From a virus (lineage: Duplodnaviria; Caudoviricetes): a stretch of DNA of 64,000 nucleotides. The stretch covers positions 53,328 through 117,327 of the IMG/VR virus record IMGVR_UViG_3300037067_011041. The stretch is one strand, 5' to 3'. A program made the position numbers and the translations under genes. Positions 3,047 through 53,509 of this stretch are shown here, piece by piece. How positions within the stretch are numbered: position 1 is the first letter of the stretch; each line of letters begins with the position of its first letter. The notes beneath the pieces are model-generated. The model searched no databases. It was not told where the DNA came from and saw nothing but the letters and a program-made list of their open reading frames with translations.

Positions 3047-3375
3047 ACAGGAAACGTCTGATGTCGATAATGCTGCGACCTGGAACTGACTCGCGGTGTT
3101 ATGACCACAAGCACAAATACTCGCATCAAGGCAAGCGTACTGGCGCCAAGCGGGTCCGGCAAGCGATAAAAAGGGATTTGAATGAGCAAAGCTGTGAATA
3201 ATGGCCCGTCTGTGTGGCGGCCAAAGATCAAGATTTGCAACTCTTGCAAACACCTGAATCGATCAGGTTGCGCCAGGTGCAATGCGACGCCCTCGTCTTG
3301 CAACAACCTGATTGGCTACGAGTACATCAACAGCCAGTGTGTATACCTTACACCTGACTGGTGTCCGGAGGACAA

Positions 3376-5955
3376 ATGAGATTTCGCGAAGACGTCTACT
3401 ACATTGACACGGAAACCCTTGGTTTTCACGGACTCGCCACGCTCATCCAGTGGGCCTTCGAGGACGGCGACGTTCACTTGCACAATCTCTGGGACGTGCC
3501 GGTAAAGGACACGCTTGCCCTGATTGAAGAGTTCACGCAACATACATGCGTGTTCTTCAACGCTGCGTACGATTGGTTCCACTTGTGCAAGATCTACACA
3601 ATGTGGTTGTTGCTTCCTCCGGACGCAATCCCATGCAAGCTGCCTATCGACATGCTTGTCAAGGCCGAGGATGAAGCCCGTGACGGCCCTTGCTTGAAGC
3701 CAAAGAACGTGATGGATCTTATGCTCCATTCACGCAAAGGTGAATTCCAAACCCTCATGTCGCGACATGATGTGAAGGTGACAAAGGTTCCAACCCCGCT
3801 TGCCGAGCCTTTGCGAAACAAGCTGGAAGACATGATCGAATTGGATGGCATCTTGTTCGCCAAGAGGGCCAATCCAAATGCGCCGAAGTGGGGCGTGTAC
3901 GACAGGATCAAACGTGGCAAGGAAGACACGATCGATCCGAATTTCAAAGACGTGATTCTCAAGTTCAAGCCCGCTCGCGGGTTGAAATATCTAGCCCAAC
4001 ACTGCCTTGGTCTGGACCCGGAGTTCCACTCATTCAAGGATGTGTATCCGGAACGAGACGGCAAGTTGTTCGAGTTGGGATACGCCCCATTCGCCAACGC
4101 CATATCGTCGGCCGAGAAAGAGTGGAAGGTATGGGACAAGAACGGAAAGCTGAAAGGGCGGGCGTGGCCCGCATACATTTACGGAGATGTCGAACACTGG
4201 AGAACGAATGAAGAGGCACGAAGGTACGCTAGAGACGACGTCACTTACACAAGATTGCTTGACGAGTATTTCGGATTCCAGCCCGCCGGTGATACCGACT
4301 CGGTGCTCGCCTGCATGGTTGCAGCAGTCAGATGGCATGGCTTTGTCGTCGACGTTGACGCAGTCACCGAACTACTTTCAAAATCCAGGGAGGTGCTTGC
4401 GGCATCCCCTGTAAACATCAACAAGCCGCAACAAGTAAAGCGATACATTCGTGCAGTGATGGCCGAGGAAGAGGCTATCCTGATTGACAAGTCCACAAAG
4501 AAAGCCAACCTGGAGAAGATTCGATCCGATTATGTTGTCAACCCAGACGATGTTGATCCTGATCTTGGCGGCGAGCTATGCATACGCTGCTTGGGCGAGG
4601 GAGAAGAGGCTTCTGGCCCTTGTCCGCGATGTGAGGGAAGAGGTTATCTTCCTGTCGGCCCAACTCTGGCCTCAAAACGGGCAGACGAAATCCTCAAGTG
4701 CAAAGTTGCCGCAAAGGAAAACGAACTCTATGAAAAGCTTCTCAAGGCAAGGCGCTTTCACGCAGCGTTCAAAGTCATCGGCACCTTGTCTTCGCGTATG
4801 GCGGGAGGAGAAGGACTGAATGCCCAAGGCATCAAGGGCAGCAAGGAAGTTCGTGGTGCCTTCCCGCTGAAGTGGGATGGAATGGTATTGTGTGGCGGTG
4901 ACTTCGACGGATTCGAGGTTACGATCGCTGACGCTGTGTTTGGTGACGCGAAGCTTCGCGAGAACCTCCTTGCAGGTATCTCGATCCACGTCATGATGGC
5001 CGAGAAGATCTATCCGGACAAGACTCGCGAGCAAATCAAGGCCAGTAAGGGGATGGCTGATGGTGGCGACATTGACATGTACACTCGTGGTAAGCAAGCG
5101 GTGTTTGCCACGTTGTACGGCGGCGACGCCAACACGATTAACAAGAAGCTGTCCATTCCGAAGAAGATCGCTGAGGCGGCCTTCGACGCGTTCCAGGAAG
5201 AGTATCCAGGCATCAAGGAGACACGCGAGAACATCGCAAAGTCGTTTGAAGCCTTGAAGCAGCACGGTGAGATCGGCACGGGCCATATCAGCTACACCGA
5301 ACCCGCAGAGTATGTCGAGACCTTCCTTGGGTTCCGCCGATACTTCACGCTGGAAAACAAGATCGCCAAGGCCCTTTTCGATCTCGCACATGACACGCCG
5401 AAAGCTTGGCGCAAGCTTGACTGGAAAGTTGTCCGACGCGACCGAGAGCAGACGCCTGCCGGAGCGGTGTCTTCTGCCTTGTATGGGGCGGCGTTTCAGA
5501 TCCAGGCCAGCACGATTCGTGCCGCCAACAATCATCTCATCCAATCCCCTGGGGCGATGATTACAAAGGACTTGCAACGGAACATCTGGGAAGTGCAACC
5601 GTACGGCGTGAACGAGTGGCGGGTGGCCCCGATGAATATTCATGACGAAGTTCTTAGCGTAACGGCGCCAGCGTATGTCGACGCAGTTACGGGCATCACC
5701 GTCAAGACTGTCGAATCGTTCCGCGATCGCGTCCCGTTGATCGGAATGTCGTGGGTCAAGTCAATGGAGAACTGGGCTGGCAAAAAGGGCGGTGAGGAAG
5801 ACCTTGAGGTGCATATCACCCCAGAAGGTGTAACTGGATGGGTGAGTCTTCAAGACGATTGCTATGTCGAGCCCATCGACATTACTGAACTGGAAGCCCT
5901 CGACGAAGAGGACGACCCATGTCCAGACACAAGTTACTTAGACAGTCTTATTTGA
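3376..5955 (+). CDS. polA: family A DNA polymerase with 3'-5' exonuclease domain and a Zn-finger insertion
   Basis: ExoI DTET, ExoII FNAAYD, ExoIII YARDD; GTLSSR; motif A DFDGFE; motif B RGKQAVFATLYG; motif C IHDE; ATG 3376 after GGAGG. Confidence 0.95.
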   Translation: MRFREDVYYIDTETLGFHGLATLIQWAFEDGDVHLHNLWDVPVKDTLALIEEFTQHTCVFFNAAYDWFHLCKIYTMWLLLPPDAIPCKLPIDMLVKAEDEARDGPCLKPKNVMDLMLHSRKGEFQTLMSRHDVKVTKVPTPLAEPLRNKLEDMIELDGILFAKRANPNAPKWGVYDRIKRGKEDTIDPNFKDVILKFKPARGLKYLAQHCLGLDPEFHSFKDVYPERDGKLFELGYAPFANAISSAEKEWKVWDKNGKLKGRAWPAYIYGDVEHWRTNEEARRYARDDVTYTRLLDEYFGFQPAGDTDSVLACMVAAVRWHGFVVDVDAVTELLSKSREVLAASPVNINKPQQVKRYIRAVMAEEEAILIDKSTKKANLEKIRSDYVVNPDDVDPDLGGELCIRCLGEGEEASGPCPRCEGRGYLPVGPTLASKRADEILKCKVAAKENELYEKLLKARRFHAAFKVIGTLSSRMAGGEGLNAQGIKGSKEVRGAFPLKWDGMVLCGGDFDGFEVTIADAVFGDAKLRENLLAGISIHVMMAEKIYPDKTREQIKASKGMADGGDIDMYTRGKQAVFATLYGGDANTINKKLSIPKKIAEAAFDAFQEEYPGIKETRENIAKSFEALKQHGEIGTGHISYTEPAEYVETFLGFRRYFTLENKIAKALFDLAHDTPKAWRKLDWKVVRRDREQTPAGAVSSALYGAAFQIQASTIRAANNHLIQSPGAMITKDLQRNIWEVQPYGVNEWRVAPMNIHDEVLSVTAPAYVDAVTGITVKTVESFRDRVPLIGMSWVKSMENWAGKKGGEEDLEVHITPEGVTGWVSLQDDCYVEPIDITELEALDEEDDPCPDTSYLDSLI

Positions 5956-39278: not shown

Positions 39279-40133
39279 TCATAGGATTCTCGCTCCTGGG
39301 TATTTCCAATCATAGGTGATACGCCCATCTGGAAAGAAGATGATCTGACGAATATCGTTCGGGTCAGTAGTGTCCGTAAGACAGTTGCCGACGCACACGT
39401 TCTGACCATAATAGTCAAACACGCTGGCCCCATGTGGAAGCCGTAGAAGTTCCGTCCCCAGTGAGTCTAGGTGATCGTACAGTTCGCTCACCTTTAGGAT
39501 CGGTCGGTGGGAATCTACCCACTTGGCTACTTCGCTGTCAAGGGCCCTTTCTGGCCGATCCACCGGTCTAATGGTGCACTGCTCTACCTGAAAGTTCTTG
39601 CAGTGTGTCAGCAGTCGATCAACGTTGTCGAGACTGTCCACGCCGCCCTTTACCATAGTGCAGTTGATGCGAACTGCCATTCCGGCTTCATGCCCTCTGT
39701 CAACGGCCTGCCAGAAATTGTAGCTACTCGGCAGGCCCATAATATCGTCGCTGATGGCCGGGTCGTAGTGAGCCACCGAAATGCACACCAAGGTAAGCCC
39801 AGCGTCGGCCCACTCCTTCAACTCTTGGAAGGGCATCCTGAGTATGCCAACACCGTTGGTTTGAAGGTCGACCAACGGAAACTGGTGATCCATGCGCCAG
39901 AGGTAAGAGTTGATCGAACTGTTGTACAGCATCGGCTCGCCCTTGCCTGTCAGCAGCACGCTGATAAGGCCGTCACCGGCTGCCTTGGCTATTCGACAAG
40001 CTGTATCAAAACGATCCCAGCGGATGTCGGCCTTATCGCACGCCTCCGTCTGTGTCATCTTGCTGACACAATAAGGGCAACGAGCGTTGCACGCTGCGGT
40101 GCCAACCACAATTGAAAATGTGTGGGTCTTCAT
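39279..40133 (-). CDS. radical SAM protein
   Basis: CNARCPYC, TGKGEP, QTNG. Confidence 0.9.
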   Translation of the reverse strand: MKTHTFSIVVGTAACNARCPYCVSKMTQTEACDKADIRWDRFDTACRIAKAAGDGLISVLLTGKGEPMLYNSSINSYLWRMDHQFPLVDLQTNGVGILRMPFQELKEWADAGLTLVCISVAHYDPAISDDIMGLPSSYNFWQAVDRGHEAGMAVRINCTMVKGGVDSLDNVDRLLTHCKNFQVEQCTIRPVDRPERALDSEVAKWVDSHRPILKVSELYDHLDSLGTELLRLPHGASVFDYYGQNVCVGNCLTDTTDPNDIRQIIFFPDGRITYDWKYPGARIL

Positions 40134-42417: not shown

Positions 42418-43262
42418 GGTGAAGACTTCTCCTGTAACTTCAACGTCGGCTGGCCAAAGCACGGCTGTGTATGGGCCTCGCGTGTCATGTTCACCGCATT
42501 GCAAGTCCAGCTTGATGGCGTCTAACGCAGACTCACGGGACGCATAGGCTCTTGAAGCCACCAAGGGGTGTCCATAGCGATCGAAAATGTCGTAAGAAAA
42601 ACCACCACAGGTAGAAACTCGAACGCGCCTAGTTGATACAATCGGCCTTTGTTCTGGTGTAAATGGTTCTCCTTTCCAGTCACACCAGCAGCAAACTTGA
42701 CATAGTTTGCCTCCCATCTGCCAGTGTTCTGTCAGACCGCTGTTACATCTCGGGCATTCGTCGTACTTTTGTGTCATCATTGTCTCCTGAATACACGTTC
42801 CCAGCCGTCGGCGCTCATGCCGTCGTCGCACACCTCTCGTATCGTTTTGCCAAGTCGGTCCTGCCACTCTGGGAGCACCGACACCCACCGATCGCCGTCC
42901 AGGCTGAGAAGGCATGATACACAAGCCGTTTCGTCGAACTCCTGTAAAGTATCGTTGTCTTCCAGCTTCCTATGTCCACCGAATACCGGGTGGTTGCTTG
43001 AGATCTGATGTCGAAGCTTATTCATCCGGCCACTCCTCCCAAACTCTCTCAGACAGGGTAACGGCAAACTTGGCAAGAGCCTTCTTATCGTAAACCCGGT
43101 CTCTGATTTTCCACAGCACGCTGTGTGCATGCGACTTTGTAGCCGGAGGCCACTCGATGCATGCGTCGGGCGACCGCGAAAACAACGTGAACGCCCATCC
43201 AGCCTCTTCATCAAAGCCGCTGGCTTCAAGCAGCACGGACAGTAGCAAAATGTCCTTGAGCA

Positions 43263-43745
43263 TCAAATCACCTCGGTCCAGGTTAAGGCCAACTCAACAT
43301 GCCCGTCATCGAAGTTGGTCAGTCCAGGTTCGCACCCACCATCAAGCACAAACGCGAGACACCGGGCGTCTAATTCAGACTGGGCGACAACGGTGTAGTC
43401 GGTGTACTCAGTATCAAGATCTTCCAACCCCTGCCCTCCGCAAGTTACACCGGCCACATCGGATTCACGGAACACCCGAATCTTGTAGGTGATAGTGCCA
43501 GCCCGATGCATTCGATCCTCTGCTTGCCTCTGCGACCCAGATACAAAGTGCGAGGCTATTGCCAGTTCGAGGCCAGCGTAGTCGACGTTCGATTGCCGTC
43601 CGTACTGATAGCCAAAGGCCACTGACTTTGCCTTTCGACGGGTATTTTCGTTGCACACGCCCCACAAGGCGTTAGAAAGGTGAAAGTAAAAGTCTCCACC
43701 CATCTTCAAACACTCTTCAATCAGTTCGGCGGTTGTCTTTGGCAT
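43263..43745 (-). CDS. mosaic protein carrying PolA motifs B and A and SF2 helicase motifs VI and V (candidate decoy)
   Basis: RRKAKSVAFGYQYG, DYAGLELAIASH, QAEDRMHRAG and TCGGQGL within 160 aa. Confidence 0.7.
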   Translation of the reverse strand: MPKTTAELIEECLKMGGDFYFHLSNALWGVCNENTRRKAKSVAFGYQYGRQSNVDYAGLELAIASHFVSGSQRQAEDRMHRAGTITYKIRVFRESDVAGVTCGGQGLEDLDTEYTDYTVVAQSELDARCLAFVLDGGCEPGLTNFDDGHVELALTWTEVI

Positions 43746-43779: not shown

Positions 43780-45192
43780 TCATTTCAGATAGTTCACGAT
43801 CATTCGGAAGGCGAAGTTCTGGACATCACGACTGCCGTCAGCGGCTCCCGTCACAAAGTGGACACACTCCTCCAAAACGGTCTCCAGAAGGATCGGGCCC
43901 GCCAAGTCGTTCCGGATATGGATCTCCTTGCTGCCAGGGGTGTAGAAGCCGAGGCAATCGCTCTCAGCGTCGGTGGCTTCGTTGAAGCCCCGCACCAGCG
44001 GCATCTGGCACTTCTCTGTGTCAATCAGCCCGGCCCCTTCAATCCACTCCCACACAATCTTCAGGGCGTCGATGGCCTCGAACGTCGGTGCGGTGATGAC
44101 TCGACCTTTGCGCTCGTTGTCGCTGAGGACGTTGTCGACGGTCGGGATTCCAAACGACTTCACCACTTCTACCATCTCAGGCTTTTCAATCACTCCGAGA
44201 TTGTAGCCCTTCCGGCGGGCAAACTCGCCAACAACGCCGTTGTTGGATGCGCAGGCCACCTTAACACCGTTGACACGCTCCCACGCCTCTTTCCAGGTCG
44301 CCTTCTGCTTCTCCAGATCGCTTCCCCATGCCACTGGCTTCAGGTAGTAGGAATCCAGGCTGGTTTCCAAGACCTTGTCGCCACGATCGAGAGCGTTCAA
44401 GAGCGACACGACGTCGTCCACACTGCCATCTCGGTAGAGTTTGGCCACGGCCGCTCGGGCGCTGTATTCGTCCAGGTTGCGGGACTCATCGATGGTGATC
44501 TGCCCGGTGGCGAAGTTGTAGTCGTGAATCGAGTCGTCGTGCGACGCCAGTTCCCGGACAAACACCCCGTTCAGGTAGATCTGGGCCTTCCTTCTATCCC
44601 CCAGTTTGGGGAGGATTCGCTTGTTCAGGTCAACACTGGTGAAGTGAAGGAACCTGTGCGGCAGATCGTCGACGTACTCGACAAGGGCTTCATTGGCCTC
44701 AATGAAGATGCGGGTGTAGCCGTCCTGCGCCCGCTTTTGGCTCTCGTCCACAATGCGGACGATCAGGTCGCCGTCAGTGTGTGCGTCACGAACATTGTCC
44801 CCGCCTTTGGTGGTCCTGTCAATGGCGTTCGCGACAAATTCGCGAGCGGCCATGTGCTCGGCGTTCCAGTCGAGAGCCCCAAAACCGAGGGTCCAGCCAA
44901 GATCTTGCTTGCGGGTGGAGGTGCCTCCGAATTGGACGTACACCTGACGTTCCTGCCGCTCTTCGATGCCATCGTTGATGGTGATCGTCTTGGTTTTGAA
45001 TTCCATGCGGGTGAGCCCGCAGTAGATCGTGACGCCAAGCCCCTCCCGGAGGAGAGCAGTGATTGCCAACTTGGCTCCGCTGCCGAACTGACCAATGAGG
45101 CTCGCGTTGTCGCGGCTCATGCTGGCACCGAGAAGCGTGAAAGACTCGGTCGGGGCGATGCCTTTGTTCTGGATGCAGAGGTAACTGGCCAT
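43780..45192 (-). CDS. GHKL (Hsp90/MORC/rIIA-like) ATPase with a C-terminal degenerate metallopeptidase motif
   Basis: IQNKG, IGQFGSGAK, REFVANAID, GYTRI; LEECVH. Confidence 0.75.
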   Translation of the reverse strand: MASYLCIQNKGIAPTESFTLLGASMSRDNASLIGQFGSGAKLAITALLREGLGVTIYCGLTRMEFKTKTITINDGIEERQERQVYVQFGGTSTRKQDLGWTLGFGALDWNAEHMAAREFVANAIDRTTKGGDNVRDAHTDGDLIVRIVDESQKRAQDGYTRIFIEANEALVEYVDDLPHRFLHFTSVDLNKRILPKLGDRRKAQIYLNGVFVRELASHDDSIHDYNFATGQITIDESRNLDEYSARAAVAKLYRDGSVDDVVSLLNALDRGDKVLETSLDSYYLKPVAWGSDLEKQKATWKEAWERVNGVKVACASNNGVVGEFARRKGYNLGVIEKPEMVEVVKSFGIPTVDNVLSDNERKGRVITAPTFEAIDALKIVWEWIEGAGLIDTEKCQMPLVRGFNEATDAESDCLGFYTPGSKEIHIRNDLAGPILLETVLEECVHFVTGAADGSRDVQNFAFRMIVNYLK

Positions 45193-45235: not shown

Positions 45236-45263
45236 AGTATACACCAAGAAACAGGAAAGTCAA
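45236..45263 (-). promoter_or_regulatory. sigma70-type promoter
   Basis: TTGACT-N16-TATACT. Confidence 0.85.
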
Positions 45264-45282: not shown

Positions 45283-46023
45283 TCAAAGACGTTGAAAGAC
45301 CAAGGTCTCCAACGGCATGGAATTTTCCTTACGCCGGAAGACGAACCTGTCTACCATTTCATAGTTTTCCAGTTGGTCGGAGATGCACTGAACATGTTTA
45401 TCTGTAGACCAGCAATAGGCGTCGCGAAGAAGGTCTTGAAACTCTCCTGTGTTGCGGAAGTTATCCAGCTTCAACACTGTGAGGGCGATCACCTCGGCCA
45501 TCTGCTCGCTATCAAGCTTGCGCAGAAAGTTGACAAGCTTCTTTGAAGCATACCCGCCGCCAGTGTTGGCATTGAATAGCTTGCATTTCTCTTCTGGTGC
45601 CTCGTATACTCCGATGGCCTTAACATTTGGATGCAAGGCATAAAGTTGCAAGGAGTCGATGTCTGCGGTGATAACCAACTCATCTGGTTTCACTAGCGTC
45701 AAAATGGCTTGCAGGTGGGCGACGCTCTCTTTCTCTTCTTTTGTATCTTCCCCGAACACATGAATGACTCGCGATCCTCGTAGTTCCTTGTGCCAGTTAT
45801 CCAAGTACCACGCCGCTGAATACAGTGAGCCGGGGCCGGAGCTATCTAGCGTGCCGTGCACTACACTTCGATGCTGGCCGGTGACCCGACAAACATGTGT
45901 ATGGAGATCTGTGTTGAGAATTCTCTTGCAGCCAGTTTCGATGGCTTGCTTGAAGTAGCTTTCGGCTACTTCTAAGGTGCTTTGACCTCGATAAGGTGCG
46001 CAACCGTGACAAGACTGGATCAT
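45283..46023 (-). CDS. hypothetical protein sharing an N-terminal helical motif with 46706-47449
   Basis: DL...VC..TG....V.GT. Confidence 0.6.
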   Translation of the reverse strand: MIQSCHGCAPYRGQSTLEVAESYFKQAIETGCKRILNTDLHTHVCRVTGQHRSVVHGTLDSSGPGSLYSAAWYLDNWHKELRGSRVIHVFGEDTKEEKESVAHLQAILTLVKPDELVITADIDSLQLYALHPNVKAIGVYEAPEEKCKLFNANTGGGYASKKLVNFLRKLDSEQMAEVIALTVLKLDNFRNTGEFQDLLRDAYCWSTDKHVQCISDQLENYEMVDRFVFRRKENSMPLETLVFQRL

Positions 46024-46709
46024 TGAAATTTCTCCTCATGGGTTTTGTGGACGAATAGTTTTTCTACGCGGTCGATCTTACCAGACGAGCCGTTCATGTC
46101 AGTCTTGACTTGTTTCTGCCACACCGGCACAAAAACGTCTGGCGCGGCATACTCGGACACCAGCACAATGGATTTATTGGATCGGAAGTCTACCCAATCC
46201 CAAAAGTCTTTCGAGTCAAACCTGCCCACTGTGAAACCTGTCGTGCCGTCATAAGGCGGGTCGCAATACACGACGTCGGCCGGAACATCTTGTTCAGAAT
46301 ACCCGCAATTAAAGAACGTCACTCCCTGTATAAGAGGCCGCAACTTATCAAGACTGCTGGCCGCATTCTTAGCGAAGTTTCGATTTCCCTTCTCTCTTGC
46401 GTACCCGCCAAAAAACTTGCCCGAGTTGCTACAGCCAAAACCAGCAAAGGCTCGCAAAGGAGACGGCTTGGCGGTCTTCAGTTGATTGTATTCTTCCTCG
46501 GTTATGCTGTCAGGCGGTCGCCAGCCATCTCGCACGGCAAGCAACAGAAGAATCAAGTCTAGATGCGAATCGGATGCTACTCTTGGGAGCGTTACATGGG
46601 CACCAACACTAAACATGCCGCAAAAAGGCTCCCAGTACGTTCCGGTCAGCGTGTTAATGATACCCGCAAGAGTTTTGCCGATTCGTGCTTTTCCGCCGAA
46701 GTATCTCAA
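46020..46709 (-). CDS. DNA adenine methyltransferase (Dam/D12-like)
   Basis: YFGGK, EPFCG, YCDPPY, VSEY, EKLF; TTG start overlapping the upstream TGA. Confidence 0.9.
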   Translation of the reverse strand: MRYFGGKARIGKTLAGIINTLTGTYWEPFCGMFSVGAHVTLPRVASDSHLDLILLLLAVRDGWRPPDSITEEEYNQLKTAKPSPLRAFAGFGCSNSGKFFGGYAREKGNRNFAKNAASSLDKLRPLIQGVTFFNCGYSEQDVPADVVYCDPPYDGTTGFTVGRFDSKDFWDWVDFRSNKSIVLVSEYAAPDVFVPVWQKQVKTDMNGSSGKIDRVEKLFVHKTHEEKFQ

Positions 46710-47449
46710 TTGGCTCTCCAAACTGTTGTTCGCATTTGTCGCGCACCTTTCTCGCGACGGTAGAAACGGTTGAGTAGCAAGCTGTAACCACGCATAGCGT
46801 CTTTTAGCGCCGCCAGATTCTTGTCCTTATACCTCCGGTACTTTTTCATGGCTTTGTTGACCCACTCGCCACTGTTACGGAAGCCGCCAACCTGCCCCTG
46901 TATTGTAATGACGATATACTCATGCCCGACTGATGTTGCTCGCCGGAAGTCTTCAAAGCGGGTTCCACACATGTACCCAACTAGGTCCAAGTTAAGAACC
47001 GTTGCAGGCTCGTTGTGCAGCATGATGTCCCCGTGTCGAGTGTGTACCCACGGAATGTTTCGTTTCAGTTGCCTGAGAACACGCGGATCATAATCATAGC
47101 TGATAACATCATCTGGAAGAAACACCCTAATGTCGGTGCCGTTAATTCCTCCCAGCGTTACCATAGAGGGGATCTCTTTTGGAAGATGCTCGCGAACGGC
47201 TCGCCAGTTGGCAAGCTTCTCTGGGGCCGTGTAGTCAACAACGATTGCTTCCCGACCTCCAGATCGAACGCACCCGTCTTGATAGTGCCACTCACCAGAA
47301 TCAAACAGTTTACAATCTCGTTTGATAATGGTGCCGCGAACTGACTCATAGCTGTTGCCGGTCAAATTGCACACAGCGTTAATCAAATCAGAGTGGGACA
47401 TCTCGGTTTTGCCTTCGAGAACTTCTAAGGCAACGGATACGATACTCAT
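46706..47449 (-). CDS. divergent methyltransferase-like protein with an N-terminal helical domain
   Basis: VTLGGING, SYDYD, GDI, NLDLVG, YIVIT in Rossmann-like order. Confidence 0.5.
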   Translation of the reverse strand: MSIVSVALEVLEGKTEMSHSDLINAVCNLTGNSYESVRGTIIKRDCKLFDSGEWHYQDGCVRSGGREAIVVDYTAPEKLANWRAVREHLPKEIPSMVTLGGINGTDIRVFLPDDVISYDYDPRVLRQLKRNIPWVHTRHGDIMLHNEPATVLNLDLVGYMCGTRFEDFRRATSVGHEYIVITIQGQVGGFRNSGEWVNKAMKKYRRYKDKNLAALKDAMRGYSLLLNRFYRREKGARQMRTTVWRAN

Positions 47450-49959: not shown

Positions 49960-50550
49960 TCAAACATTGTTCAATCCTGGCGGGTAGAAACTTTTCAAGT
50001 CGTGTCCCGGCCTGTCGTAGAACATCAGGTAGAGTTCTTCCTCACTGTGGATGTGAAAGGCGGAAGCGTCAACGCTTACGTCAGTCGATCTTCGACCCGG
50101 CATCCACGTGTCAAGAGTGCCTTCTCGCCTGCCATGACAATGGCCGTATAGGTGGGCCCAGCCGTTGTGGCTTCCTTCCCAAAATGCCATTGGATTGTGA
50201 CACAAGACGGCATGCATCGACTTGCCGCCATAGCGTAGCTTTGTGTGCCGGATGTAAGGAATCTCTCCGAACACGTTCCTCGACGCTTGCACCGGATCAT
50301 GGTTGCCGCGAATCAGATACACATGGCGACACTTAATCTTCGCGCGGTACCTCCCAGGTTTGTCCGTGCAGAAATCGCCAAGCACAAACAACTCGTCACG
50401 GGCGTTGACGTAATAGTTGATAGTCGCCAGCAAGTATTCGTCGTGCTCTTCGATCGATTCAAACGGACGTGCAAAGCCCGGATGAAGCCGAGGGAAGTTG
50501 CTAACAAGCTTCCAGTGCCCAAAATGAGTATCCGCTATGAAGTATCTCAT
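49960..50550 (-). CDS. calcineurin-like metallophosphoesterase
   Basis: DTHFGH, LGD, GNHD, CH, GHCHG. Confidence 0.9.
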   Translation of the reverse strand: MRYFIADTHFGHWKLVSNFPRLHPGFARPFESIEEHDEYLLATINYYVNARDELFVLGDFCTDKPGRYRAKIKCRHVYLIRGNHDPVQASRNVFGEIPYIRHTKLRYGGKSMHAVLCHNPMAFWEGSHNGWAHLYGHCHGRREGTLDTWMPGRRSTDVSVDASAFHIHSEEELYLMFYDRPGHDLKSFYPPGLNNV

Positions 50551-50990
50551 TCGTACAGTCCAAGCTTGAAAAACTTGCGGTGCAGTTGAGCGGCACACTT
50601 GCCAACGATGTAGGCTAAGTCTTCCTCATCACCGTTGCAGCCATCGGGATCGAGTTTGGGGAAGCATTCGATGCGGCGAAAGTATCCCATCGCCATGTGA
50701 AATGCCTCATGGCTCTGCGTCTCGGAGCCAAGTTGTGTTTTCGCAAACAGTACATAGCCAAGCGACGGATGGCTTACCCAGCTTTCATGTCCGTTGGCCG
50801 TCCATTGGAGCATCATACGCTCTTGTGGCATGACTACGGCTCCAAATCGATCGTCCTTATCGTCGGTGGCGTTCAGGACGTGGAAAGCGCGACGCATGTT
50901 TCCCTTGTTATTGAACACCAGCACAGACCAATAGTGATTAGAAAGCTTACGTTCAGGCCATAGCTTGAACTGTGCGAGTTTGCCGATCAT
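50547..50990 (-). CDS. putative HExxH metallopeptidase
   Basis: SHEAFH...EE.LAY. Confidence 0.6.
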   Translation of the reverse strand: MIGKLAQFKLWPERKLSNHYWSVLVFNNKGNMRRAFHVLNATDDKDDRFGAVVMPQERMMLQWTANGHESWVSHPSLGYVLFAKTQLGSETQSHEAFHMAMGYFRRIECFPKLDPDGCNGDEEDLAYIVGKCAAQLHRKFFKLGLYE

Positions 50991-51899: not shown

Positions 51900-52583
51900 T
51901 CAGGCATGTTTACTCCTGTCGGTTGGTCTGAATTTCCAATCTCCGCGAACATCAAAGGCGCGAGAGATAGCCTTGTCTCGTGCCTCTTCTGTCGAATACC
52001 ACTTCAGCACATGCCACCCGTAAAGACCGGCAAAGGGCAGATCAAGTAGCACCTCGATGCCGAAGTTCTTTTGCTTCGGGCCTTTCTTCGACGCTGTCCT
52101 GTGTACACTTGTGTAATAGCTTTTTGGGTCGGTGTCAAATTGTCTCATGACTAGCGTCCATTCATCGCTGAGGCAGTCCATCAAAGGTTCATCCTCTTCC
52201 CACCAGCCGTTCTCCTCGCACGCAATCACAAGTTCTTCGGCCCATTCGACGGCCCCTTCAGGGCCGTCCAAGATGGGCTGAGGCTCAATCGTGCCGCTAT
52301 CACCGTAGACCAGCAGGCTGGCCCCTGGAAACATGATCTTGTACTGGTCGATGGCCTCGCTCTTCAGTTTGTCTTCGGACAGGAAGCGAGAAGTGTCTTC
52401 CCCGGCTTTGTAAGGGAACGGATCAGTCGTGTCGGCCGATGCCAGCTTCTTGGCCTCCTCCTCGTTCATGATGTAGCGAAGATCTTCGGTTACTCCGTTG
52501 CAGTACATTCGAGCGTAGTAATGCTCAGCGTACCACACCGAATCGCTGCCTACCCACGTGGTCATTTTGCACCAGACAATCAT
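51900..52583 (-). CDS. hypothetical protein
   Basis: ATG 52583 coupled to the radical SAM stop. Confidence 0.6.
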   Translation of the reverse strand: MIVWCKMTTWVGSDSVWYAEHYYARMYCNGVTEDLRYIMNEEEAKKLASADTTDPFPYKAGEDTSRFLSEDKLKSEAIDQYKIMFPGASLLVYGDSGTIEPQPILDGPEGAVEWAEELVIACEENGWWEEDEPLMDCLSDEWTLVMRQFDTDPKSYYTSVHRTASKKGPKQKNFGIEVLLDLPFAGLYGWHVLKWYSTEEARDKAISRAFDVRGDWKFRPTDRSKHA

Positions 52584-53509
52584 AGTTTGCTCGCCACAAG
52601 GTTGTTGAAATCGACAAGCCGTTGATTGCATCCATACAGGCAATTTCCGCACTTCCTGACGCCGATTCCCTTAATACCATCCCGGTATAGATGCGAACAG
52701 GCGAATTCCTCACCACTCGGGCTGATAACCCGCTCACTCATCGATAGATAGCAAGGCTGAGAAAGGTCGTTGTCTGGAAACCTAACACCGGCGATAAGCC
52801 GAAGCTTGTTTCCGATGGTCTCCTTGAAAAGGGCAAGCGATTCCTTGTCCATGGCGGACTCCATCTTCGGCACGATGCTCTCGAAGAAATCATCGATATG
52901 CTTCGGCTGGAACACGAATCGCGGGTGTGTGCCTTTGTACACGCTGAAAAACAACGCGTACAGATGAGGAAACACCACGTTGGCAAACTGAATGAATCGC
53001 GGGGCGTCCCGATAGTTCTCGGCCGGCAAAGTGTAGGTGATGGACGTTACCGTTTGCTCGGATGCTCGCTGGATGTTTTGGCAAACACGCCTCCAGGCCG
53101 TGCGGCCGACAAGGTTGTCCCAGTAGACTTCGTTGTCCGAATCCAAAGACACCTTGAGGCGTTTGACGTGTGCCGCTGGCGGCATGATAAACGCGTTTGT
53201 GTTCAGGTGGAACCGGTACTTCTCGCTGCATGATTTGATGAGCGGGTACAGCCAAGGTACGATGGATGGCTCACCTCCGGTGATATGGATGATTGCCGTG
53301 TCACCATACTTTGCAAGCGCGTCCTCAAATCGCTTCTTGGACAAAGTGGTTGGAGTCTGCTTCACGTTGCAGTAGTCACAACGAAAGTTGCATCCCTCAG
53401 TAATGAACACCGCTACCCTGCGTACTGGCGGGTTCTTACCGGCCGCCAAACAATCGACGGTCTCCTTTGCCCTGAGTTCAAAGTCGTCCCAATACAATGA
53501 GTGTCTCAT
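52580..53509 (-). CDS. radical SAM protein with a C-terminal SPASM/twitch-like Cys cluster
   Basis: CNFRCDYC, TGGEP, NTN, SLD; C...C...CGNC.YGC. Confidence 0.9.
   Translation of the reverse strand: MRHSLYWDDFELRAKETVDCLAAGKNPPVRRVAVFITEGCNFRCDYCNVKQTPTTLSKKRFEDALAKYGDTAIIHITGGEPSIVPWLYPLIKSCSEKYRFHLNTNAFIMPPAAHVKRLKVSLDSDNEVYWDNLVGRTAWRRVCQNIQRASEQTVTSITYTLPAENYRDAPRFIQFANVVFPHLYALFFSVYKGTHPRFVFQPKHIDDFFESIVPKMESAMDKESLALFKETIGNKLRLIAGVRFPDNDLSQPCYLSMSERVISPSGEEFACSHLYRDGIKGIGVRKCGNCLYGCNQRLVDFNNLVASKL

Follow-up and report, generated by a model that had tools for sequence, protein, structure and literature searches.

A 160-amino-acid (aa) protein encoded in the genome of an uncultured tailed phage joins two fragments of replication enzymes to a conserved acidic domain. 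Its open reading frame (ORF) lies at positions 43263..43745, minus strand, of the 64,000-nucleotide stretch analysed here (hereafter, the window), which is the right-hand 64 kb of the 117,327-bp IMG/VR virus record IMGVR_UViG_3300037067_011041. The ORF, 160 codons plus a stop, appears in the ORF list exactly as described in a first-pass annotation made from the sequence alone. Comparisons with homologs indicate that it is a real gene under purifying selection and that it belongs to a family without previous annotation, which comprises about 42 clusters at 50% identity and is found only in uncultured phages. Judged on the same sequence evidence, the product is a non-catalytic, modular protein maintained by selection, in which a piece of the fingers of a family A DNA polymerase (PolA) and the motif VI segment of an SNF2 helicase precede the acidic domain; we consider this anatomy, and the selection acting on it, to be highly probable. 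The first-pass annotation had described the protein as a patchwork of four enzyme motifs in shuffled order, a set of possible immune epitopes. Only two of these segments proved solid, and the unit that is chiefly conserved is a separate domain at the C-terminus.

A fragment of polymerase fingers

The N-terminal module (N-module; residues 1-52, 43590..43745, minus strand) consists of three predicted helices homologous to helices N and O of the family A polymerase fingers, and is modelled with a predicted local confidence score (pLDDT) of 90-96. The presence of polymerase motif B in this part of the protein had been claimed from the start, and the homology extends further than that claim: Pfam, profiles searched against the PDB and hhalign converge on residues 5-52, which align from just past motif A through motif B of family A polymerases. 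Motif B itself, the O-helix, corresponds to residues 36-49, RRKAKSVAFGYQYG (43599..43640, minus strand), which include the lowest-entropy columns of the N-module and give a shuffle p of <5e-5. The sole Pfam signal in the 160-aa protein is a sub-threshold match of residues 11-51 to DNA_pol_A (E 0.05), covering profile positions 178-222 of 381 and scoring 13 bits against a gathering threshold of 34.3. Half of the aligned family (13 of 26 members) match the same profile, always at positions ~175-263, the best of them with an E value of 3.9e-5 and 23.2 bits. Family profiles compared with PDB sequences matched nearly exclusively family A polymerases, at the N and O helices, and the N-module aligned to phage PolAs with an hhalign P of 3.7e-5. 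No PHROGs v4 profile matches the 160-aa protein at E<=10; longer members of the family hit only DNA polymerase PHROGs, and do so via the N-module.

Column variability among 19 N-modules is lowest at A39, G29, K40, F44, R36, Y48, T35 and G49, of which R36, A39, K40, F44, Y48 and G49 presumably correspond to R754, A757, K758, F762, Y766 and G767 of the Klenow fragment. In real polymerases, the O-helix residues that the N-module keeps contact the incoming deoxynucleoside triphosphate (dNTP). Position 20, which aligns with the histidine of the PolA DIH motif, is histidine in 8 members and tyrosine in 9.

The longest family member, P0007 (275 aa; L006:6764-7591), contains ~115 aa colinear with the fingers of T7-like gp5. 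It matches a PHROG DNA polymerase family (E 1.3e-7), tblastn with its residues 37-125 finds 243 phage DNA polymerase genes, the best matches being in T7-like phages, and its alignment with 7 phage PolAs (hhalign P 1.4e-8) takes in the T7-type insertion after motif B. P0007 also carries a P-x-Q-G-x-A-A-D-like stretch and what could be a degenerate motif C (…VFSEPIQF…), the alignment past residue 125 being of low confidence. The long fingers stretch together with the possible motif C suggests that the N-terminal part of the protein descends from a larger PolA fragment. With family A polymerases (PF00476; both T7 gp5-like and Pol I-like enzymes), then, the family shares the fingers segment, of which P0007 and P0018 keep 85-115 aa, whereas the 160-aa protein has no thumb, exonuclease domain, motif C or ordered palm. 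The best window for motif C (HDE) in the 160-aa protein scores 11 (p 0.55), and the Pfam alignment ends at position 222 of 381. A fragment that lacks these domains and is fused to unrelated sequence therefore cannot polymerise.

The phage encodes a complete family A polymerase of its own (864 aa; 3361..5955, plus strand; Pfam 57.6 bits), which is strongly diverged and carries the unusual motifs previously noted for it, DFDGFE as motif A and RGKQAVFATLYG as motif B. The N-module profile scores 6.7 bits on this resident enzyme, compared with 13-23 bits for the N-modules on Pfam DNA_pol_A, and fails to detect the PolAs of 23 related phages. Thus, the fragment is of the canonical, T7-like type rather than a copy of the resident gene, and the profile scores bear out the earlier remark that the small protein keeps a canonical motif B where the resident polymerase has diverged.

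A motif VI segment of SNF2 helicases

Residues 74-83, QAEDRMHRAG (43497..43526, minus strand), directly precede the first strand of the C-terminal domain and had been likened to motif VI of SNF2 helicases, which is the arginine-finger motif and helix of these enzymes. The likeness is genuine, as hhalign and an unbiased PDB search both recovered it over residues 73-83. Aligned with 92 homologs of the SNF2 helicase of the same phage, the segment reached an hhalign P of 3.6e-6 and a score of 34.5, about 10 standard deviations above the mean of 200 column shuffles (mean 11.3, standard deviation 2.3, maximum 18.3). A profile of 4 members and 32 columns, searched against 177,635 distinct PDB sequences, yielded 11 hits, all of them at motif VI and the best with an E value of 0.0021. 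These hits are all to SNF2-family proteins, comprising Fft3, Fun30, SMARCAD1, Sulfolobus SNF2, SMARCA5, RAD5, HELLS and one entry described as a DEAD/DEAH-box helicase, and the aligned region takes in the F-x-P in front of the motif. Control comparisons with hhalign gave a P of 0.45 for the motif VI segment against PolA, 0.02 for the N-module against the helicase and 0.26 for the C-terminal domain against the helicase. Within the family, D77, R78 and R81 do not vary among the four closest members, and at least 90% of 26 members retain R81. The segment is tandem-duplicated in P0013, as detected by profile search, and, by eye in the alignment, also in P0020.

What is shared with SNF2 helicases (Fft3, Fun30, SMARCAD1, Sulfolobus SNF2 and the 639-aa enzyme of the phage) is the pattern Q-A-E-D-R-x-H-R-x-G and, in homologs of the ORF, the preceding F/W-x-P. 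The common part amounts to only ~20-30 residues, and there is no match to motifs I-V, the RecA lobes or Helicase_C. Indeed, shuffle tests found no match in the 160-aa protein to motif I (p 0.93) or motif II (p 0.17) of the resident helicase, Pfam reports neither Helicase_C nor SNF2 in any of 26 members, and the structure model contains no RecA fold. Motif C, Walker motifs and the RecA fold being absent by Pfam, motif shuffles and the structure model, the protein can be neither polymerase nor helicase, as had been argued from its sequence. A modelled complex of the protein with the resident helicase scored 0.00, which weighs neither way.

The helicase in question lies outside the window, at C1:45357-47273 of the genome (L003:85-2001); it is an SNF2-like protein of 639 aa with two Zn-ribbon-like CxxC pairs and Pfam matches to SNF2-rel_dom and Helicase_C. 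Its motif VI reads QAEDRIHRPG, and most synonymous positions differ from the corresponding stretch of the ORF; therefore, this stretch was not recently copied, as DNA, from the resident helicase gene. The enzyme belongs to a large metagenomic family, many members of which (750-1076 aa) are interrupted by an intein that often includes an HNH_3 endonuclease. We considered whether the enzyme fragments could be intein flanks and rejected this origin because the inteins sit at motif I, after ...AAEMG and before VGKS, and not at motif VI.

Segments that resemble motifs A and V

The two other segments of the original patchwork fared less well. Residues 55-66, DYAGLELAIASH (43548..43583, minus strand), had been read as polymerase motif A. 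This 12-mer stands after motif B, in a linker modelled at a pLDDT of 45-58, and is lineage-specific, being found only in the protein under study (P0001), its 92%-identical variant P0163 and P0002. The likeness beats shuffles (p 2.5e-4 against the canonical motif), and the best hhalign site on PolA is motif A (P 0.0055; 0 of 200 shuffles reach the score), but the match is marginal, is confined to these closest relatives, and an unbiased PDB search with the segment returned no polymerase. An equally possible origin is the fingers helix downstream of motif B, of which the segment would be a remnant. The supposed helicase motif V, TCGGQGL, does not hold: compared with ESGGMGLTLTEA of the resident helicase, it is at chance level (shuffle p 0.23) and has no Pfam match, and it is positioned after motif VI, inside a variable insertion of the C-terminal domain. 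Two linker motifs of some homologs, EFKQEYMCEW and CPFMDIP, were also tried as pieces of a terminase or helicase, with profiles run against the six-frame genome translation and the helicase family, and were dropped (E >1; hhalign P 0.22-0.24).

The acidic core and its hypervariable hairpin

By alignment, the most conserved part of the protein is its C-terminal domain, the core (residues 84-160; 43266..43496, minus strand), which the first-pass annotation had overlooked. It spans ~60-75 aa in the family and forms a beta-beta-alpha-alpha-beta unit, that is, a two-strand hairpin, two helices and a final strand, with the signature Y-x-V-x-A-x-S-x-L-D-A-R-x-x-A-F-x-L-D-G-G ... G-H-I-E-L-A-x-T-x-T-E-V. 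Modelled alone, the core reaches a pLDDT of 94.9 and a predicted template-modelling score (pTM) of 0.81; it is strongly acidic, with an isoelectric point of 4.05. Fold searches with the core or the full-length model gave no convincing match at Foldseek E <=0.001 or VIA-align Z >=5, the best values for the core being Z 5.0 with the N-domain of eL20, Z 4.6 with PurS and Foldseek E >=0.03 against viral models. The core resembles T7 Gp2, AcrIE2 and Dmd, which are small acidic phage inhibitors, as well as PurS and the N-terminal domain of eL20, in being a small, acidic two-layer alpha/beta domain of ~60-75 aa; however, Z values of 3.0-5.0 to these five are in the chance range and there is no sequence relation.

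Three further comparisons were tried. Both HMMER and hhalign place its second strand and first helix on the strand and helix of PolA motif A, but we make no claim of kinship because the scores are insignificant (-1.4 bits; P 0.19). A derivation from the helicase C-terminus found no detectable relation (the hhalign P of 0.26 given above), and an Lrp/AsnC-like reading of the protein, as a three-helix N-domain followed by an alpha/beta C-domain, was rejected at a root-mean-square deviation of >12 A or a Foldseek probability of ~0.06.

Between core strands 1 and 2 lies a hypervariable hairpin insertion (residues 93-113; 43407..43469, minus strand), the part that contains TCGGQGL. Of 26 aligned members, 3 have it, as does the near-identical P0163. 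The hairpin accounts for 20 of the 34 nucleotide differences from this 92%-identical variant, with a local synonymous divergence (dS) of ~1.4 compared with 0.03-0.2 elsewhere in the gene, and in a wastewater variant 58 nt of it are replaced, in frame, by 19 nt. Such variability suggests recombination or diversifying selection on the loop.

Family, architectures and selection

An exhaustive HMMER search of 1.84 billion representatives retrieved 42 representative clusters at E<=1e-3, all metagenomic. The ORFs are intact in these clusters, which are <50% identical to each other. There are no members in GenBank phages, and pattern scans of IMG/VR and of GTDB species genomes returned none. All of 43 sequences carry the core; 23 combine N-module, motif VI segment and core, 6 have the motif VI segment and core, and 14 consist of the core only. 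The core-only members are 44-182 aa long, several of them 63-71 aa, and in 4 of the 23 three-module proteins (P0014, P0015, P0016 and P0032) the N-module is reduced to a stub of 12-32 residues. Two phages related through their SNF2 helicases (G001 and G002) bear core-only genes. One of them, the 101.6-kb virus record G002, has a 63-aa core-only gene (L088:1498-1689) and, 10 kb away, an intact ORF of 60 aa (L090:1468-1650) that consists of the N-module alone, contains ...TRHEVKNLFFAQLYGG and weakly matches phrog_9565, a family of unknown function (E 0.0036). Given that the N-module and the core each stand alone in related phages, the 160-aa protein is a fusion of separable modules.

In an alignment of 26 members and in a comparison of 19 N-modules, the motif residues are preferentially conserved, whereas the linkers between modules range from 0 to ~140 residues and vary in sequence, an outcome that the patchwork proposal had set as one of its tests. 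The wider shuffling of motif sets between phages, about which it had also asked, was not observed beyond the presence or absence of the three modules: other N- and C-terminal extensions in the family contain no recognisable enzyme fragments, and a search of proteins of 483-2000 aa yielded no fused forms of greater length, a negative result that is weak evidence.

A close variant, P0163 on contig L091, is 92% identical and differs by 18 synonymous and 16 non-synonymous changes, with a ratio of non-synonymous to synonymous divergence (dN/dS) of 0.25. Residues 114-160, in the core, show 4 synonymous and 0 non-synonymous changes, and residues 1-52 show 1 of each.

Genomic neighborhood

The gene is surrounded by arrays of small genes of unknown function, typical of phage accessory regions, in a phage detected in groundwater and landfill metagenomes. 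A 470-aa gene (43780..45192, minus strand), whose function cannot be read from its sequence, precedes it, and upstream of that gene there is, as previously noted at position 45263, a sigma-70-like promoter match (TTGACT, 16 nt, TATACT; 45236..45263, minus strand), a 10/12 hit in a consensus scan, which does not in itself show a functional promoter. The earlier designation of the 470-aa product as a GHKL ATPase was not confirmed, as the gene has no Pfam or PDB sequence match and its PHROG matches are all of unknown function. With the 470-aa gene (L002:2138-3547) that lies upstream of the homolog P0002, it shares 90% identity; that gene is itself preceded by a NUMOD4/HNH homing endonuclease gene. 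Downstream, the start of an 82-aa ORF (43018..43266, minus strand) overlaps the stop codon of the 160-aa ORF, and this operon-like packing recurs in the variant contig L091. Two wastewater runs labeled as RNA-Seq are probably DNA and contain related variants only, so that they are uninformative on expression.

The same neighborhood also holds genes for a QueE-like radical SAM protein, a D12-class N6-adenine DNA methyltransferase, a metallophosphoesterase and a second radical SAM protein; together, the four occupy 39279-40133, 46020-46721, 49960-50598 and 52580-53509, all on the minus strand. The region may be one of DNA modification or anti-restriction.

Mode of action

How a protein of this kind could serve a phage is a separate matter from its anatomy. 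Tentatively, we prefer the view that it acts by binding and not by catalysis. In family A polymerases and SF2 helicases, the best-conserved positions of the two segments face the nucleotide. The polymerase- and helicase-derived segments of the 160-aa protein could display these nucleotide-facing surfaces of both enzymes and, by doing so, compete for whatever normally engages them. One candidate target would be a host or rival-phage factor that recognizes or needs canonical PolA or SNF2, with the protein serving as a sensor decoy or a dominant-negative inhibitor; the other would be a triphosphate-bearing nucleotide. The acidic core and the hypervariable hairpin, for their part, might provide a second, lineage-specific binding activity. 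Mimicry of protein surfaces in all its forms, including dominant-negative inhibition and immune decoys, is possible but doubtful. Rather unlikely, in our estimate, is the most far-reaching version, in which the family would comprise "active-site fragment" proteins that couple selected bait helices to a variable acidic effector or adaptor and thereby blind or poison the factors that read such surfaces. The factors hit in this way could be pattern-recognition sensors with which the host detects replication proteins, or they could belong to the replication machinery of rival phages.

Several considerations weigh against a role in binding. The N-module is dispensable in many lineages, as attested by the 14 core-only members and the 4 stubs, so that in part of the family it could be decaying baggage. 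The linker that holds motif VI is modelled at low confidence (pLDDT 45-58), and the conserved R, K, F and Y residues could pack a small helical bundle instead of contacting a ligand. Furthermore, given that there is no member in a cultured phage, nothing ties the family to a known host or defence system.

The same observations can be accommodated by more specific explanations, or by none that involves the fragments at all, and some probability also goes to an explanation of another kind than those considered here. If the core alone were functional, the enzyme pieces would be remnants of old fusions that are being slowly deleted, as the 14 of 43 core-only sequences, the four proteins that retain just the first 12-32 residues of the N-module, the hugely variable linkers and the core-only genes in close relatives of the phage would suggest. 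We nevertheless consider such debris unlikely: motif residues are the most conserved columns among members that are only ~30-50% identical overall, the N-module exists as an intact separate gene, motif VI is tandem-duplicated in P0013 and, as judged by eye, in P0020, and close variants differ by a single non-synonymous change in residues 1-52, albeit next to only one synonymous change. A different possibility starts from the fact that the basic and aromatic face of the O-helix and the arginines of motif VI both contact triphosphates. With the exposed basic R36 and K40, the aromatic F44 and Y48 and the motif VI arginines all conserved, and histidine or tyrosine prevailing in the DIH column at position 20, the protein could bind or sequester dNTP, NTP or a nucleotide-derived immune signal. 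However, the two elements show no predicted packing against each other (pTM 0.46, with a low-confidence linker), the modules also occur separately, and the fold searches show no likeness to known sponge families; we regard a nucleotide binder or sponge as distinctly unlikely.

Dominant-negative inhibition of the canonical PolA or SNF2 protein, or both, of the host or of competing phages would explain why the fragment is canonical and T7-like whereas the resident PolA, which would be spared, is diverged. The T7 fingers region includes a basic patch that binds the tails of the helicase and of the single-stranded DNA-binding protein, and P0007 retains the ~115 aa of T7-like fingers described above; the core weakly resembles T7 Gp2 (Z 3.1) and AcrIE2 (Z 3.5), with values in the range of noise. 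Yet the motif VI segment resembles that of the resident helicase (QAEDRIHRPG) no less closely than it does any other, and we regard this inhibition as improbable. The immune decoy proposed originally, in which the polymerase and helicase segments would titrate host sensors, for example of the Avs19 type, without activating them, is quite improbable. Conserved motif residues amid varying linkers, the existence of a stand-alone N-module gene and the accessory-gene setting are all compatible with a decoy, and the fact that phage family A polymerases activate Avs19 through their core polymerase domain (PMC12803255) makes a target conceivable, though it is not evidence for the 160-aa protein. That study, however, contrasts the recognition of core folds and conserved structural patterns with the detection of short sequence motifs (PMC12803255), whereas the ORF keeps only ~50 aa of the fingers. 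Moreover, the resident PolA has diverged from the canonical motif and, therefore, a canonical decoy would not obviously protect the enzyme of the phage itself.

Small accessory genes of phages are the main reservoir of undiscovered functions in anti-defence and inter-phage competition, and most of them offer no clue in their sequence. The present family does offer one, namely, two enzyme fragments that are selected outside their parent enzymes, with the ligand-contacting residues kept best, and that are fused in varying combinations to a small domain which also stands alone. If these proteins are mimics, they would show that phages reuse parts of their conserved replication proteins to bind competitively, and the family would provide a handle on what, in infected cells, recognizes family A polymerases and SNF2 helicases. 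If, instead, the fragments are inert, the family is a well-documented case of gene debris persisting in phage genomes.

Relationship to known viral mimics

No described family is known to match the one reported here, and the nearest concept is that of the truncated-homolog mimics of eukaryotic viruses. The K3L protein of vaccinia virus is a pseudosubstrate copy of part of eIF2-alpha. As in mimics of the K3L type, a small viral protein keeps a conserved fragment without the function of the parent. By contrast, the phage protein joins fragments of two enzymes to a third domain, and the source enzymes are of phage type rather than derived from the host. Should the bait interpretation prove correct, this family would represent a prokaryotic counterpart of viral pseudosubstrate mimicry, drawn from two enzymes at once.

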